64,000 nt of DNA. Source: Candidatus Hydrothermus pacificus (GTDB lineage Bacteria > Hydrothermota > Hydrothermia > Hydrothermales > Hydrothermaceae). The position numbers and the translations under genes were made by a program. The DNA is taken from the NCBI GenBank assembly GCA_002011615.1, contig MTOH01000002.1, positions 207,526 to 271,525 of the forward strand. The letters are read 5' to 3'. The notes beneath the pieces were generated by a model. The model was not told where the DNA came from. It saw nothing but the letters and a program-made list of their open reading frames with translations, and made no database searches. Shown here in pieces: positions 4-19,241 of this stretch. The stretch's first letter is position 1, and each line of letters begins with the position of its first letter.

Positions 4-894
4 ATGCTCTTTGAGGTTATTGAAGAACACGGCAGGTCAGGGGTTGATTTTATAACGGTTCATGTGGGTATAACTCTTGAGTCTATAAAAAGACTCAGAA
101 ATCAGAGAAGAACCACAGGGATAGTTTCAAGAGGTGGAGGCCTTTTAGCAGTATGGATGCTTCATCATGGCAGGGAAAACCCTCTTTATGAAGAGTTTGA
201 TAGACTTCTTGAAATAGCAAGAGAATACGATATGACTCTGAGTCTTGGAGATGCATTGAGACCAGGAAGCATTCTTGATGCAACGGATAGACCACAGATA
301 GAGGAGTTAATTCTTCTCGGTGAACTTGTTGAAAGGGCGAGAAAAGCAGGGGTTCAGGTAATGGTGGAAGGTCCGGGACATATTCCAATAAATGAGATAA
401 AGACAAATGTGGAAATGGAGAAAAAATTCTGTAAGAATGCACCCTTTTATGTTCTGGGTCCTTTACCCTGTGATACAGGGGCGGGTTTTGACCATATTGT
501 CGGGGCAATAGGTGGTGCCCTTTCTGCAAGTTACGGGGTTGATTTTCTATGTTATGTGACGCCAGCAGAACATCTGGGACTTCCCACACCCGAACATGTT
601 AAACAGGGAGTTATTGTCTCAAAAATTGCAGGTCATATCGGAGACCTTGCAAAGGGAATAAAATCAGCATGGGAGCAGAACAGAAAAATTTCAGAGGCAA
701 GATACAGGCTCGATTGGGACGAGCAATTTAGACACATGCTTTTTCCTGAAGAGGCAAGAAAATTGTATGAACAGAGAAGGTCAGAAACGAGTGCATGTTC
801 AATGTGTGGTCCTTTCTGTCCTATGAATTTATTTGAAAAATATGTAGAAGAAAAACTTGATGAAGTTATAAAAGTTAAAAGGGAGGGTGTATGA
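4..894 (+). CDS. thiC: Phosphomethylpyrimidine synthase ThiC, C-terminal part (5' end lies outside the window)
   Basis: Translation matches the ThiC C-terminal half, including the C-terminal CX2CX4C cluster (CSMCGPFC). No start codon in window; frame is open to the left edge. Confidence 0.9.
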   Translation: MLFEVIEEHGRSGVDFITVHVGITLESIKRLRNQRRTTGIVSRGGGLLAVWMLHHGRENPLYEEFDRLLEIAREYDMTLSLGDALRPGSILDATDRPQIEELILLGELVERARKAGVQVMVEGPGHIPINEIKTNVEMEKKFCKNAPFYVLGPLPCDTGAGFDHIVGAIGGALSASYGVDFLCYVTPAEHLGLPTPEHVKQGVIVSKIAGHIGDLAKGIKSAWEQNRKISEARYRLDWDEQFRHMLFPEEARKLYEQRRSETSACSMCGPFCPMNLFEKYVEEKLDEVIKVKREGV

Positions 895-1487
895 AACAGG
901 TCGAGATGCCTGAGTATAAAGTTTATGACAGGGTGGTGCTAAAGAAACAAGAAACTGCCCTTGTGATAGTTGATATGCAGAACGACTTTGCCCATCCTGA
1001 TGGGAGACTTTTTGTTGCGGGTTCAAGAAAGACAATCCCCTTTATACAGGAACTCCTCAAAAAAGCGAGACAGAAGGATATGAAGGTGTTCTTTACACAG
1101 GACTGGCATACAAAATATGACCCTGAATTCAAAATATGGGGAGAACATGCGGTTGCAGGGACATGGGGTTCTGAAATAATTGAGGACCTGAAACCTCTTG
1201 AAAACGAGTTTTCAATCAGGAAACTGAGATACGACGCCTTTTTTGGAACGCCATTTGACCTGTATCTTAGAGCCTTTAATATAAAGAACCTCATAATTAC
1301 CGGTACAGTTGCGAATATATGTGTTCTTCACACAGCCGGAAGCGCGGTTCTTCTGGGGTATGAGATAGTTGTTCCTGTTGACGCTGTTTCTGCTCTTACA
1401 GTATTTGATTGTGAATCTGCATTCAGACAGATAGATTTTCTTTATAAGGGAAAACTTGTAAAGACAGAGGGAATAGAGATAGAGTGA
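891..1487 (+). CDS. Isochorismatase-family cysteine hydrolase, embedded in the thiamine operon
   Basis: 198 aa with isochorismatase/nicotinamidase-like motifs (VDMQNDF, conserved Cys in TGTVANICV). ATGA overlap with thiC stop and GTGA overlap with thiD start. Confidence 0.75.
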   Translation: MKQVEMPEYKVYDRVVLKKQETALVIVDMQNDFAHPDGRLFVAGSRKTIPFIQELLKKARQKDMKVFFTQDWHTKYDPEFKIWGEHAVAGTWGSEIIEDLKPLENEFSIRKLRYDAFFGTPFDLYLRAFNIKNLIITGTVANICVLHTAGSAVLLGYEIVVPVDAVSALTVFDCESAFRQIDFLYKGKLVKTEGIEIE

Positions 1488-2275
1488 GAGTTGCAAAGGT
1501 TCTGGTAATTGCTGGTTCTGATTCGGGTGGTGGTGCCGGAATACAGGCTGATATAAAAACCCTTAATTCAATCGGTGTTTTCGCAATGACAGCGATAACA
1601 TCATTGACCGCTCAGAATACGCAGGGGGTTTCTGGAATACTTGATGTTCCGGGCAAATTCTTAAAAAAACAGATTCAAACTGTCATGGAAGATATAGGTG
1701 CTGATGCAGTGAAAACAGGAATGCTTTCAAACAGGGATATAATAGAAGTTGTGGTGGAGGGAGTTAAGAAATACAGGATAAAAAATCTTGTTGTTGACCC
1801 TGTGATGAAATCACAAACCGGATATGATTTAATAAAAACTGATGCAAAAAGAGTTCTGGTTGAAAGACTTTTACCTTTTGCTCTCATTGTGACACCCAAC
1901 AGGCTTGAGGCAGAAGAACTTGCCAGTATGGAAATTAGAAATAAAAGGGATATAAAAAAGGCAATGAAGAGGATAAAAGAAAAAGGGCCCGAATGGGTTT
2001 TGATTAAAGGCGGACATTTTAAAGATGATTATGCTGTTGATTATCTTTACGATGGAGATAAAATTTATAAAATAAAGTCAGAGAGGGTGGATACAGAAAA
2101 TACTCACGGTTCAGGGTGCACATATGCATCCGCAATTGCAGGCTATCTTGCAAAGGGTTTTGATGTTCTGACAGCGGTCAGAAAAGCAAAAAGATTTATT
2201 TATGGTGCAATAAAAAATTCCCTTTCCATAGGGAAGAGAAAAGGACCGGTTAATCATTTCTGGAAAGTGAGGTAA
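1484..2275 (+). CDS. thiD: Hydroxymethylpyrimidine/phosphomethylpyrimidine kinase ThiD
   Basis: 263 aa; N-terminal VLVIAGSDSGGGAGIQADIKT and C-terminal HGSGCTYASAIA motifs typical of ThiD. GTG start overlapping the upstream stop. Confidence 0.9.
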   Translation: MRVAKVLVIAGSDSGGGAGIQADIKTLNSIGVFAMTAITSLTAQNTQGVSGILDVPGKFLKKQIQTVMEDIGADAVKTGMLSNRDIIEVVVEGVKKYRIKNLVVDPVMKSQTGYDLIKTDAKRVLVERLLPFALIVTPNRLEAEELASMEIRNKRDIKKAMKRIKEKGPEWVLIKGGHFKDDYAVDYLYDGDKIYKIKSERVDTENTHGSGCTYASAIAGYLAKGFDVLTAVRKAKRFIYGAIKNSLSIGKRKGPVNHFWKVR

Positions 2276-3336: not shown

Positions 3337-3948
3337 TTATTTTTTTCTCAACATAAAGCCGTCTTCTGTTACATAGAGATAAAAGGGTTTATTGTCCGGA
3401 TACTGGAATATACCCTGTCCAAAAACCGCATCCACAAAAAATATTTTCTGCCCGTGTTTCATAATAAGTTGCGTTAAGAAGTCTTCTTCTGCCAGTTGAT
3501 ACGAGGTGGGTGAAACATTTTCAACAGAGGAGTATCTTCCTTTTAATCTTGTAATTTTATAGGCTGTATGGATTCCAAGAAATTCAAGGTATGTTTTCCA
3601 TTTTACAACAACCCCCTGTATTTCCCAGTTCTCTCCTATTATTACATAAAAAAAATTTTTAGAAGGCTCTCTGCTGTATTCCAGCGTAACCATCATTGTA
3701 TCCTTTGTAATCTCCTTAGCGTATATTTTTGCAACAAGGTCCTCTCTTGTGAGAATCTGATATGTTTTAAGACTTTGAAAGAAGAATAAAAGCATAAATG
3801 CCAGCATCAGAGAAATCAGAGAACTTAAAGAAAGCAGTATCCCCTTTACTATTTTTAGTTTTCTGAATTCTAAAAAGGCATATATAAGAAGTAATAAAAA
3901 TAAAAGGAACAGAAAAACTGAAATAAAAAGCAAAGGGTATACATTCAC
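3337..3948 (-). CDS. Hypothetical membrane-anchored protein
   Basis: 203 aa; two strongly hydrophobic N-terminal segments then a soluble domain with no motif I recognise. Confidence 0.5.
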   Translation of the reverse strand: MNVYPLLFISVFLFLLFLLLLIYAFLEFRKLKIVKGILLSLSSLISLMLAFMLLFFFQSLKTYQILTREDLVAKIYAKEITKDTMMVTLEYSREPSKNFFYVIIGENWEIQGVVVKWKTYLEFLGIHTAYKITRLKGRYSSVENVSPTSYQLAEEDFLTQLIMKHGQKIFFVDAVFGQGIFQYPDNKPFYLYVTEDGFMLRKK

Positions 3949-4001: not shown

Positions 4002-5492
4002 TCATATCTTAATTCTTATGCCGATGTTATATGCTGCAGTTTTTAATGGATTTAATGAAAGCTTACCCTCTCCTCCTATTTCTTTTATAGATGATAAAAC
4101 TCCTGCTAATGGAGTAGTCCTTGCTCCAAGATATAAATCCAGAGGTCCTGCGCTTATATTTCCACCCATACCGACCGTAATTGTTGGTGGGGTGAATAAG
4201 AAAAAGTCTTCGTATTTTAAATATCTCCATGAGAATACGCTTCCTGTTCTTAAACCAACAGGTCCGAATCCAAATCCCATCATTGTTACAAAATAGGCTT
4301 TACCGAACGCGTATTTACCCGAGGGGATATCAATACCTCCCGAAAGGTTCAGGTTCATAAGCATGAGATTCAGGTTAACACCTGCTTTTAATCCTATGAT
4401 TCCGGGTAAGTTCAATGAACTTTTAAGTATTTCATGTTCTCTTTGAGAATAGACGAATTTAAGTGTATCTATGATTATATTTCCATCTATGGTTCTTAAA
4501 GATGTATCAACCGAAATTTGAGTTGTATCAAGCACATAATCTGAAACCCCTTCTATAAATCTATATGTTCCTGTTATTCCGCCACTTAATTTAAAGGGAA
4601 AAGAGTATTCAAGGGAAACTCCTGCTTTTAAAAGAGGTGTCTTTGCAAGAAAACCTGTTATAAACCCTATCTGTGTTCCTGAGAAGTTTCCCCTTATTAC
4701 ATCAGAAAATATCTCATTGTCAAAATTGCCGTTTGCATTAAGATTTATGCTCCAGTCTCTGCCCTGATTATCCTGTGCTGTTGTATCAAATTCAAGACTT
4801 AAATTATCGGTTCTGCCATTTATTGAGTATCTCAGATTTACATCACCACTGTATCTTTTTATGTTAAATCCAAATCCCAGTGCAACAGGCCCCAGACCTT
4901 TTGCAAGTCCAAAGAAAACAGGATAGGTTTTAGCATTTAATCCACCTGTCCCATCTACAGGGAAATCAATATTCCCGTTTAATTTAAAAGTTACAGGAAT
5001 GTATGTTCCTGCAGGAATATCAGGAATATCATCATGAGAAAGTGTATCTTTTACTTCAAAGGATATGTTCTGGTTTATTATTTCTGAAACCAGAAGGTCT
5101 GCCCCATATTCGTCGTCCCTTGAATAAGAAATTCCAGCATCAAAAACATATAGTTTTGCTTTTGCACCAATAAAATCAAAACCGCCTCTGTCTTCAAGGT
5201 TTAACTCAAAAGGAATTTTTATTTCAGGAATTTCTGTCCCTGCAATTGAGTCTATTCCAAAGGGTAAATCAAAATCTATTTTTGATCTGCCTGTTGTGCT
5301 ATAAAAACTCGCAAATTCGTATTTTGAACCAAAATGAAGTGCTGCAGGATTATAACTTGCTCCTATTATTCCATCTCCTTTTGAAACATCAAGAAACCCG
5401 GGATGGAGAAAGTAAAGAGCATTTAAAGGATTGGAATAATAAAAGGTGAAATTGGTCTGAGAAAAAAAATAAAGCATTAAAATTTTTACCAC
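4002..5492 (-). CDS. Putative outer-membrane beta-barrel protein
   Basis: 496 aa; N-terminal signal-like segment, Gly/aromatic-rich alternating beta-strand pattern throughout, no catalytic motif recognised. Confidence 0.5.
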   Translation of the reverse strand: MVKILMLYFFSQTNFTFYYSNPLNALYFLHPGFLDVSKGDGIIGASYNPAALHFGSKYEFASFYSTTGRSKIDFDLPFGIDSIAGTEIPEIKIPFELNLEDRGGFDFIGAKAKLYVFDAGISYSRDDEYGADLLVSEIINQNISFEVKDTLSHDDIPDIPAGTYIPVTFKLNGNIDFPVDGTGGLNAKTYPVFFGLAKGLGPVALGFGFNIKRYSGDVNLRYSINGRTDNLSLEFDTTAQDNQGRDWSINLNANGNFDNEIFSDVIRGNFSGTQIGFITGFLAKTPLLKAGVSLEYSFPFKLSGGITGTYRFIEGVSDYVLDTTQISVDTSLRTIDGNIIIDTLKFVYSQREHEILKSSLNLPGIIGLKAGVNLNLMLMNLNLSGGIDIPSGKYAFGKAYFVTMMGFGFGPVGLRTGSVFSWRYLKYEDFFLFTPPTITVGMGGNISAGPLDLYLGARTTPLAGVLSSIKEIGGEGKLSLNPLKTAAYNIGIRIKI

Positions 5493-6064: not shown

Positions 6065-6529
6065 TTAAAACTCAAAGGTCATTCCACCTGAAACTGTTCC
6101 TCCGTATACCCATGCACCCTTTCCTTCGCCCATATCAGGAACAACATATTTGATTTCAAACCCGGCAGAGGCTTTCTCAAGGTCAAGTTTGAAACCTGCA
6201 AATACCTGATAACCAAGTGAAGATTTATTTACTCCACCACCTGTTAAAAGGTAATATCCAAGACCACCTCCGAGATAAGGAGCAAATTTACTTGTATATT
6301 TTAAGGGATAAAATAAAGCCTCAAAAGGAATATCAAACTGATTGACACCTCCATCCAGCCCTACCCACTCAATTCCTGTTCTTGCACCGAAGTATTCAAG
6401 ATAGTCATAATTAACATATACACCAGCAGATGGATAATTTTTCCCATTTGAGTGGTATAGCGAACCTTTTATCTCTACCCTCATTTTACCGGGACCCAGT
6501 GTCAGTAAAAGTGTTAAAATTACACTCAT
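6065..6529 (-). CDS. Small outer-membrane beta-barrel protein
   Basis: 154 aa; signal peptide, Gly/Tyr-rich beta-strand pattern, C-terminal aromatic (..MTFEF). Confidence 0.5.
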   Translation of the reverse strand: MSVILTLLLTLGPGKMRVEIKGSLYHSNGKNYPSAGVYVNYDYLEYFGARTGIEWVGLDGGVNQFDIPFEALFYPLKYTSKFAPYLGGGLGYYLLTGGGVNKSSLGYQVFAGFKLDLEKASAGFEIKYVVPDMGEGKGAWVYGGTVSGGMTFEF

Positions 6530-18497: not shown

Positions 18498-19241
18498 ATG
18501 AGCCCGAATAACGCAGATAGCATAATTGTTCTTTCAGGTCCTGAATTTGAAGATGTTGATTATAGTGAATTAATAAAGTTTATTAAGAATTATGGATTTT
18601 CAATTGAAAGAGAGGGGGATTTGCTTGCAAAGCTGGATGCAGATTTATTTGCAGAAAGAATGGCTAAGATAAGAATTCTGGAACCTGATAAAAAACATCT
18701 GAATGAAAACCCGTTTCCTGTTGAAGTTGATTATGAAAAACGTAATTTAAAATCAATACCACGAAAAAAAGGTATTATTTACTCTGGCAATCACTTTTTG
18801 AAAATTCTTCAAGAACAACTTGATGATATTTTTGACTTGAGAAAAAACTGGCCTGTGTATCTTTCAGACCAATTGCTGGCAACATTTGAAGCCAGGTGGC
18901 ATATAAGAGTGATGATTTTTGGATTTCCTGTTATTATTTCTGTGCCCGGGATTGTTTATGGACCTGCCAGGTCAAGGGAATATTATATTTCAGCGCAGAT
19001 GGGTATTCCAGAAGCAGATGAAGACTATATAAAAGAAAAGGATGAAAGAAAGACAGAGGTATTAAAGGGTTATCTCTTCCAGGCAATCTATTTCTACAAA
19101 TGTCTTCTTGAAGGGAAAGAATTTAGATTCTGTGAAGATAAAAATTGTTCTCTTTATAACTCGCACTGGCAGAGGGAGATTCTTGATGCACAGTTAAAGC
19201 ACAGTCTTTGCGAAAAACACTTAAAAGAAATTAAAATATAA
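18498..19241 (+). CDS. Conserved hypothetical protein with C-terminal CX4C...CXXH metal-site-like motif
   Basis: 247 aa; C-terminal FCEDKNCSLYNSHWQREILDAQLKHSLCEKH. Spacing resembles the archaemetzincin zinc site but there is no HEXXH. Sits between queG and thiE. Confidence 0.5.
   Translation: MSPNNADSIIVLSGPEFEDVDYSELIKFIKNYGFSIEREGDLLAKLDADLFAERMAKIRILEPDKKHLNENPFPVEVDYEKRNLKSIPRKKGIIYSGNHFLKILQEQLDDIFDLRKNWPVYLSDQLLATFEARWHIRVMIFGFPVIISVPGIVYGPARSREYYISAQMGIPEADEDYIKEKDERKTEVLKGYLFQAIYFYKCLLEGKEFRFCEDKNCSLYNSHWQREILDAQLKHSLCEKHLKEIKI

Follow-up and report, generated by a model that had tools for sequence, protein, structure and literature searches.

The gene at positions 891–1487 (+) of a 64,000 nt stretch of the Candidatus Hydrothermus pacificus genome (contig MTOH01000002.1; the whole stretch analysed is called the window below) very probably encodes a nicotinamidase (PncA, EC 3.5.1.19), a metal-dependent enzyme of the thermophile/archaeal subgroup, as judged from its conserved residues and its relatives. 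As an enzyme the protein is unremarkable; the novelty is that its gene sits within a thiamine operon that also encodes the NAD-consuming Thi4 and, in the lineage of the window, lies behind a thiamine pyrophosphate (TPP) riboswitch. A pncA gene in a thi operon appears to be an undescribed arrangement and to be confined to one uncultured lineage. The best overall explanation, which we favour with moderate confidence, is that PncA is co-expressed with Thi4 and recycles the nicotinamide that Thi4 would release.

Results

The gene and its junctions in the operon

An earlier note on this DNA had described a cysteine hydrolase of the isochorismatase family at 891–1487, overlapping both thiC and thiD, and the sequence bears this out. 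The open reading frame (ORF) of 198 codons begins with an ATG (891–893) that overlaps the thiC TGA (892–894) in an ATGA junction, and a Shine–Dalgarno-like GGGAGGG is found at 881–887, 3–4 nt upstream of this ATG. At the other end the TGA (1485–1487) and the thiD GTG (1484–1486) form a 4-nt GTGA junction. No start codon of the thiD ORF precedes this GTG, and no later ATG, GTG or TTG occurs before the conserved kinase core. The thi4 gene lies directly downstream of thiD after a spacer of 90 nt, and no terminator-like site was detected on the + strand between the two. The genes of the operon are, in window coordinates:

4..894, + strand: 3′ part of thiC (phosphomethylpyrimidine synthase), cut by the window start; PF01964 442.8 bits, NF009895 447.8 bits
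881..894, + strand: thiC/nicotinamidase junction with the Shine–Dalgarno-like run and ATGA, read from the sequence
891..1487, + strand: pncA-like gene, predicted metal-dependent nicotinamidase of the thermophile/archaeal type, 198 residues; PF00857 151.8 bits, alignments, invariant residues
1484..1487, + strand: nicotinamidase/thiD GTGA junction, read from the sequence
1484..2275, + strand: thiD (hydroxymethylpyrimidine (HMP)/HMP-P kinase), 263 residues; TIGR00097 339.2 bits (cut-off 205), PF08543 315 bits
2366..3172, + strand: thi4 (NAD-dependent ADP-thiazole synthase), 268 residues; TIGR00292 250 bits, PF01946 232 bits

With all four genes on the same strand, 4-nt overlaps on both sides of the nicotinamidase gene and no terminator before thi4, the predicted transcription unit comprises thiC, the nicotinamidase gene, thiD and thi4. 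The nicotinamidase would be translationally coupled on both sides and therefore made together with the thiamine enzymes. The GC content of its gene (41%) is like that of thiC and thi4 and its GC content at third codon positions is slightly higher (0.39 vs 0.30), values that are uninformative as a test of recent transfer.

Residues, profile and fold of a probable nicotinamidase

The only Pfam family matched by the protein is PF00857 (Isochorismatase), with 151.8 bits against a cut-off of 27 (E 2.6e-44) and residues 22–182 covering profile positions 1–164 of 175. When aligned to PncA of P. horikoshii, the reference sequence of which was confirmed as 1ILW/1IM5, the protein is 37% identical; D28, K111 and C144 fall on the catalytic triad D10/K94/C133, and D71, H73 and H86 on the zinc ligands D52/H54/H71. 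The context of the catalytic cysteine had been called intact in the earlier note, and it is: C144 lies in TGTVANICV and is invariant in all relatives. The metal loop D71-W-H73-T-K-Y-D77-P-E79 (DWHTKYDPE) fits the pattern DXHXXXDXE exactly, which is the archaeal form of a motif whose metal site, one Asp and two His, is said to be invariant in nicotinamidases (PMC5531466). In 54 family sequences, including seven that are linked to thi genes, there is no variation in the triad, the metal ligands, D77 and E79, nor in F33, W83, Y114, F117 and G138. Both F33 and W83 align with pocket-lining aromatic residues of 1IM5 (F15 and W68, respectively), and W83, which precedes the last His ligand, matches in position W83 of UbNic, a residue on which the low Km depends (PMC5531466). 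The codons concerned are those of D28 (972–974), D71 (1101–1103), H73 (1107–1109), D77 (1119–1121), E79 (1125–1127), H86 (1146–1148), K111 (1221–1223) and C144 (1320–1322).

An AlphaFold2 model of the protein (mean local confidence, pLDDT, 96.1; predicted template-modelling score, pTM, 0.92) has a three-layer alpha/beta fold. Foldseek superimposes it on 3EEF, 3HB7 and the PncA, RutB and BiuH structures with template-modelling (TM) scores of 0.8–0.92. The best of these is 3EEF (TM 0.92, root-mean-square deviation 1.5), which is also the best solved-structure match by sequence, with 109 bits for the protein alone and 154 bits with the family profile.

Several observations speak against a simple assignment as nicotinamidase. 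The earlier note had suggested that a profile search would place the protein in an isochorismatase subfamily; the family model PF00857 was passed, as said above, while no NCBIfam equivalog reached its cut-off. The model of the E. coli-type bifunctional nicotinamidase/pyrazinamidase (NF008623) scored 56.2 bits with a cut-off of 174, lower than the 76.8 bits for RutB, although NF008623 is built on a proteobacterial subgroup and the failure excludes that subgroup, not the enzyme class. Neither the fold nor the profile scores separate nicotinamidases from RutB or BiuH. Finally, the V-A pair that forms the cis-peptide of the oxyanion hole in classical PncA is replaced here by T139-V140, which follows the conserved Gly138; the nicotinamidase of T. 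acidophilum has L-D at this place, and cis geometry is unreadable from sequence. Because no equivalog passed and the fold is not discriminating, the subfamily was assigned from motifs and orthology.

Relatives of the protein

The protein is 39% identical (E 2e-33) to Q9HKY9 of T. acidophilum, the sequence of which is that of the 3EEF structure. Q9HKY9 has been used as a working thermostable nicotinamidase in an in vitro NAD+ salvage system, and its codon-optimised gene is printed in the supplement (PMC6482498). The two proteins share the D/K/C triad and the metal loop DxHxxxDPExxIWGxH; unlike the window protein, Q9HKY9 has no 20-residue N-terminal extension and carries the above-mentioned L-D instead of T-V. 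The name given to 3EEF by its depositors, 'N-carbamoylsarcosine amidase related protein', does not agree with the published use of this protein as a nicotinamidase, nor with its intact Asp/His/His motif, and annotations propagated from 3EEF may be wrong.

Closer relatives are found in Thermus, where proteins carrying the RefSeq name nicotinamidase (T. oshimai WP_413217183 and others) are 57–58% identical over the full length, with all catalytic, metal and pocket residues the same. In contrast to the window, the T. oshimai gene lies between the genes of methylenetetrahydrofolate reductase (MTHFR) and an HhH-GPD glycosylase, with no thi gene and no riboswitch nearby. This MTHFR is TTHA0327 in T. 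thermophilus HB8, and the synteny agrees with TTHA0328 being the ortholog, which we take to be the characterised T. thermophilus nicotinamidase. Taniguchi and colleagues reportedly characterised TTHA0328 in 2017, with a role in the salvage of nicotinamide from heat-degraded NAD+.

The family as a whole is common in thermophiles at 48–66% identity (Thermoproteota, Desulfurococcales, Acidilobaceae, Sulfolobales, Anaerolineae, Thermus and candidate division WOR-3). In a neighbour-joining tree the thi-linked clade is nested among named nicotinamidases on a branch that is not long, and T. acidophilum Q9HKY9 stands outside the tight family of 50–70% identity. Classical PncA (1IM5, and likewise the enzymes of M. 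tuberculosis and S. pneumoniae and yeast Pnc1) has the isochorismatase-like fold, the triad and the metal site in common with the window protein, whose metal loop is four residues shorter and of the form DxHxxxDxE rather than DWHPxxH.

Conservation of the linkage to thiamine genes

Linkage was screened in 106 loci from genomes and metagenomes, queried with the ThiC, ThiD and Thi4 of the window. The order thiC-nicotinamidase-thiD-thi4 is present with every homolog of at least 70% identity (L001–L004 and L061–L065, candidate division WOR-3 from hot springs), which together form one clade in the tree and account for at least nine further contigs. Below 66% identity this order was seen in no locus, and the loci looked up in the group of 63–66% identity have unlinked contexts. 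In all, some 90 family loci are without an operonic thi gene, among them two other WOR-3 metagenome-assembled genomes (L010 and L021, with no thi linkage), Thermus, Anaerolineae and many Thermoproteota; in one locus of the Pyrodictiaceae (L031) thiC and thiD lie about 4 kb away on the opposite strand.

The 4-nt overlap of the nicotinamidase gene with thiD recurs in all close relatives (L001–L004). The overlap with thiC is specific to the lineage of the window, L001 having a spacer of 15 nt instead. A second WOR-3 lineage, here called lineage B, with 58% identity in the nicotinamidase, has an 8-nt overlap between the nicotinamidase gene and a true thiD (TIGR00097 318 bits; 42% identity in ThiD). 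It is represented by six assemblies (loci L059, L060 and L107–L110; GCA_039803985.1, GCA_039803845.1, GCA_039804005.1, GCA_039804025.1, GCA_965648955.1 and GCA_965649135.1), in which the gene order is PBP, DUF6800, nicotinamidase, thiD, aminotransferase and RtcB, the class IV aminotransferase gene overlapping thiD. The pairing conserved as a core in WOR-3 is thus that of the nicotinamidase with thiD rather than with thi4.

The earlier note had proposed to look for conservation of the neighbourhood in other genomes, and had held that the idea of a thiamine link would fall if the gene belonged to a well-characterised nicotinamidase clade and was not syntenic with thi genes in relatives. The first part of this is what we find, since the protein groups with nicotinamidases. 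The second is not: thi linkage holds among the relatives of at least 70% identity in WOR-3 and, as the nicotinamidase-thiD pair, in lineage B, and it is absent from the roughly 90 other loci.

A comparison of seven thi-linked with 47 unlinked sequences gave only eight clade-specific positions, all peripheral, with none in the triad, the metal site or the pocket. Because these eight changes are peripheral, the branch is not long and the composition is like that of the neighbouring genes, the thi-linked copy gives no sign, at the sequence level, of a new substrate.

Among 145 neighbours of homologs in 41 unlinked loci, classified with Pfam, no recurrent partner emerged; the best families (histone-deacetylase-like, thioredoxin, DHH, Nnr and Amidohydro_2) occur in 4–5 loci each. 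Nnr, an NAD(P)HX repair enzyme, adjoins the homolog in four loci of the Desulfurococcales/Acidilobaceae. In four loci of the Thermoproteota (L005, L006, L007 and L046) the homolog is followed by an Amidohydro_2 (PF04909) gene of 275–277 codons that either abuts it or overlaps it by 1–4 nt. The Amidohydro_2 and Nnr neighbours may represent further NAD-related pairings.

The region upstream of thiC

The part of the operon that lies beyond the window start is supplied by L051, a contig from a public run that is identical to the window across 11,487 nt. On this contig the full thiC gene (440 codons, L051 7069–8391) extends 429 nt upstream of the window start. A TPP riboswitch aptamer (RF00059; 64.4 bits, gathering score 54.3) precedes it at L051 6830–6950, outside the window and 119 nt upstream of the thiC start. 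The aptamer is also present in the relative of 84% identity (L061, 73.4 bits). None was detected in the relatives of 70–72% identity or in lineage B, even at E 0.01. Neither this riboswitch nor the thi4 gene directly downstream of thiD had been mentioned in the earlier note.

In the lineage of the window the region between rpmC and thiC (L051 3411–7069) contains two genes (236 and 253 residues) that could be assigned to no family, a TTGAAA/TATAAT pair resembling a promoter, and the TPP riboswitch. In L001–L004 (70–72% identity; L001 4044–4693) only 15 nt separate thiC from the ribosomal-protein genes before it (rplP, rpmC), and there is no riboswitch. A promoter scan gave sites no more numerous than in shuffled sequence.

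The window thus resembles known TPP-riboswitch thi operons with Thi4 in having a TPP aptamer before thiC and thiC, thiD and thi4 in the same direction, and DUF6775 accompanies Thi4 in relatives. It differs from them in the extra, non-thiamine pncA gene that is translationally coupled between thiC and thiD. Among publications naming both nicotinamidase and THI4, titles and abstracts gave no prokaryotic operon, and among the papers listed none pairs the TPP riboswitch with a nicotinamidase term.

Thi4 and a second thiamine locus

Thi4 of the window has a cysteine (Cys163, codon 2852–2854, motif ITCVDP) at the position of the sulfur donor. In alignments of PDB sequences Arabidopsis THI1 has C at this position (SCMDP), the methanococcal enzymes 4Y4N and 4Y4M have H (LHIDP) and 7RK0 of T. 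ammonificans has M (LMVDP). The window Thi4 is accordingly predicted to be of the 'suicide type', though NCBIfam calls the family sulfide-dependent.

A second thiamine locus lies 15 kb from the operon:

18498..19241, + strand: DUF6775 gene; PF20565 186 bits
19255..19896, + strand: thiE (thiamine-phosphate synthase); PF02581 195.6 bits

Here thiE, which provides the remaining coupling step of the thiamine pathway, begins 13 nt after the DUF6775 gene. No TPP riboswitch was detected before this locus. The window DUF6775 protein is 63.5% identical to the one encoded directly 3′ of thi4 in L001–L004, L063 and L065, and an association of DUF6775 with Thi4 has been reported for Cys-type Thi4s (PMC13325395).

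Downstream of the operon there are three consecutive minus-strand ORFs at 3337–3948(−), 4002–5492(−) and 6065–6529(−), with 203, 496 and 154 codons, none of which has a Pfam match at E 0.01. The 203-residue protein opens with a long hydrophobic stretch.

Discussion

A possible role of the nicotinamidase alongside Thi4

In the mechanism that we propose, Cys144 would attack the nicotinamide amide with the help of Asp28 and Lys111, and a divalent metal held by Asp71, His73 and His86 (and Glu79) would bind the pyridine nitrogen, the products being nicotinate and ammonia. The gene would be expressed as part of one unit consisting of promoter, TPP riboswitch, thiC, pncA, thiD and thi4. The substrates from which THI4 enzymes form ADP-thiazole are NAD+, glycine and sulfur (PMC8454699, PMC13325395, PMC7187267). 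Because the thiazole is built from NAD+, one nicotinamide is released for each thiazole formed. It is established that this moiety is lost, as the structure of the Thi4 product implies; the point is attributed to Chatterjee and colleagues (2007). The nicotinamidase would turn this by-product, together with nicotinamide from the thermal decay of NAD+, into nicotinate for the re-synthesis of NAD, and might at the same time keep nicotinamide away from the slow, NAD-cleaving Thi4. A salvage enzyme for which there is constant need would make no sense behind a TPP riboswitch unless the demand for it followed thiamine synthesis, as it presumably does. That the gene is functionally coupled to Thi4 and NAD, rather than merely located beside thi4, is a tentative proposal to which we give somewhat less than an even chance. 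Of the two readings offered in the earlier note, a link between thiamine and nicotinamide is the better one, given that Thi4 uses NAD+ (PMC8454699, PMC13325395); it is plausible, if unproven.

A number of findings count against such a coupling. In most of the family, as described above, the gene has no thi neighbour, and the nicotinamidase-thiD pair of lineage B has neither thi4 nor thiC nor a riboswitch nearby. Thiamine flux, and hence the nicotinamide originating from Thi4, is small compared with the thermal decay of NAD. Unrelated genes are packed head-to-tail in these genomes, as with thiC and rpmC in L001–L004. The genes that would carry nicotinate on to NAD (pncB, nadD and nadE) were not found in the window or in any of the 106 loci; the queries were T. 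thermophilus nicotinate phosphoribosyltransferase (NaPRT) and nicotinate mononucleotide adenylyltransferase (NaMAT) and the NAD synthase of Bacillus, all three from a published supplement. More than 400 Thi4 neighbourhoods have been surveyed in a study whose text makes no mention of nicotinamide, pncA or isochorismatase (PMC13325395).

These points lend some weight to the view that a housekeeping nicotinamidase has simply hitch-hiked into the operon. Heat splits NAD+ into nicotinamide and ADP-ribose, so that a thermophile would need the enzyme for general NAD+ salvage, and its gene would have come to lie between thiC and thiD by accident, as a neutral event peculiar to this lineage with its compact genome. 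The wide distribution of the family in thermophiles, its highly variable neighbours and the lack of operonic thi linkage in most loci are in keeping with this, as are the four archaeal loci beside Nnr, which point to NAD maintenance and not to thiamine, and the dense packing of unrelated genes both upstream of thiC in L001–L004 and around thiD in lineage B. An accident would have to account, however, for stop/start overlaps between two thi genes in an arrangement that is kept down to 70% protein identity, and for an overlap with thiD that persists in lineage B at 58% identity in the nicotinamidase and 42% in ThiD. It would also leave an always-needed NAD-salvage enzyme behind a TPP riboswitch in the window lineage, to be shut off whenever thiamine is plentiful, and it would attach no significance to the NAD consumption of the operon's Thi4. 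We regard a neutral accident as a real but rather unlikely explanation.

The other reading of the earlier note, an amidohydrolase for salvage of the thiamine pyrimidine, found no support. Such an enzyme would convert N-formyl-4-amino-5-aminomethyl-2-methylpyrimidine (formylaminopyrimidine) or a similar compound to HMP for ThiD, as a non-homologous replacement of YlmB. It would fit with the fact that the most conserved adjacency in WOR-3 is to thiD and not to thi4 and is translationally coupled in two lineages; moreover, thiamine is heat-labile, so that salvage should matter in hot springs, and a site whose metal binds a ring nitrogen might in principle accommodate a pyrimidine. Yet all the catalytic, metal and pocket residues of a nicotinamidase are retained, and the active site, metal site and aromatic pocket are the same in thi-linked and unlinked members, with only the eight peripheral differences between them. 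The family includes enzymes named or used as nicotinamidases, and formylaminopyrimidine is an N-formyl amine, a reversed amide when compared with nicotinamide. No tenA or thiamine-precursor transporter gene was seen beside the nicotinamidase gene, and the de novo genes thiC, thi4 and thiE are present. The only logic shared with YlmB/TenA salvage is that a hydrolase is encoded beside thiD; the window active site is that of a nicotinamidase. YlmB is an M20-type metallopeptidase and TenA a helical thiaminase II, folds not known to be related to that of the window protein, and homology to either was rejected, PF00857 being the only Pfam match. We consider pyrimidine salvage very improbable. The same low probability applies to a dual enzyme, that is, a nicotinamidase that also hydrolyses a thiamine-derived pyrimidine amide such as formylaminopyrimidine and so feeds HMP straight to ThiD, replacing YlmB non-homologously in thermophiles.

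Least probable of all, in our estimation, is another amidase of the isochorismatase family, either an N-carbamoylsarcosine amidase (CSHase), in line with the name that the depositors gave to 3EEF, or a hydrolase of the ureidoacrylate or biuret type. RutB (76.8 bits) and BiuH (67.2 bits) are the top partial matches in NCBIfam, but both are far below their equivalog cut-offs of 377.95 and 370, and an identity with either was rejected on these grounds. The Asp/His/His metal site is intact and invariant in the family of the window protein; RutB, BiuH and CSHase are not known to have such a site. The true CSHase 1NBA scores only 53.6 bits, vs 68.6 for 1IM5 and 109 for 3EEF, and published NAD salvage systems rely on the 3EEF protein as their nicotinamidase.

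Returning to the nicotinamidase, one consequence holds for the thermophile family as a whole, for which the label 'carbamoylsarcosine amidase' of 3EEF is misleading. If the coupling to the thiamine genes is accidental, the result is routine annotation only, namely that the gene is pncA. If it is functional, nicotinamidase would join the genes that can fall under the control of a TPP riboswitch, and the gene order would hint that nicotinamide release by Thi4 is of consequence, whether because NAD is lost or because a very slow enzyme is inhibited by it. The question of Thi4 and nicotinamide is relevant to the engineering of THI4 thiazole synthases for plants.

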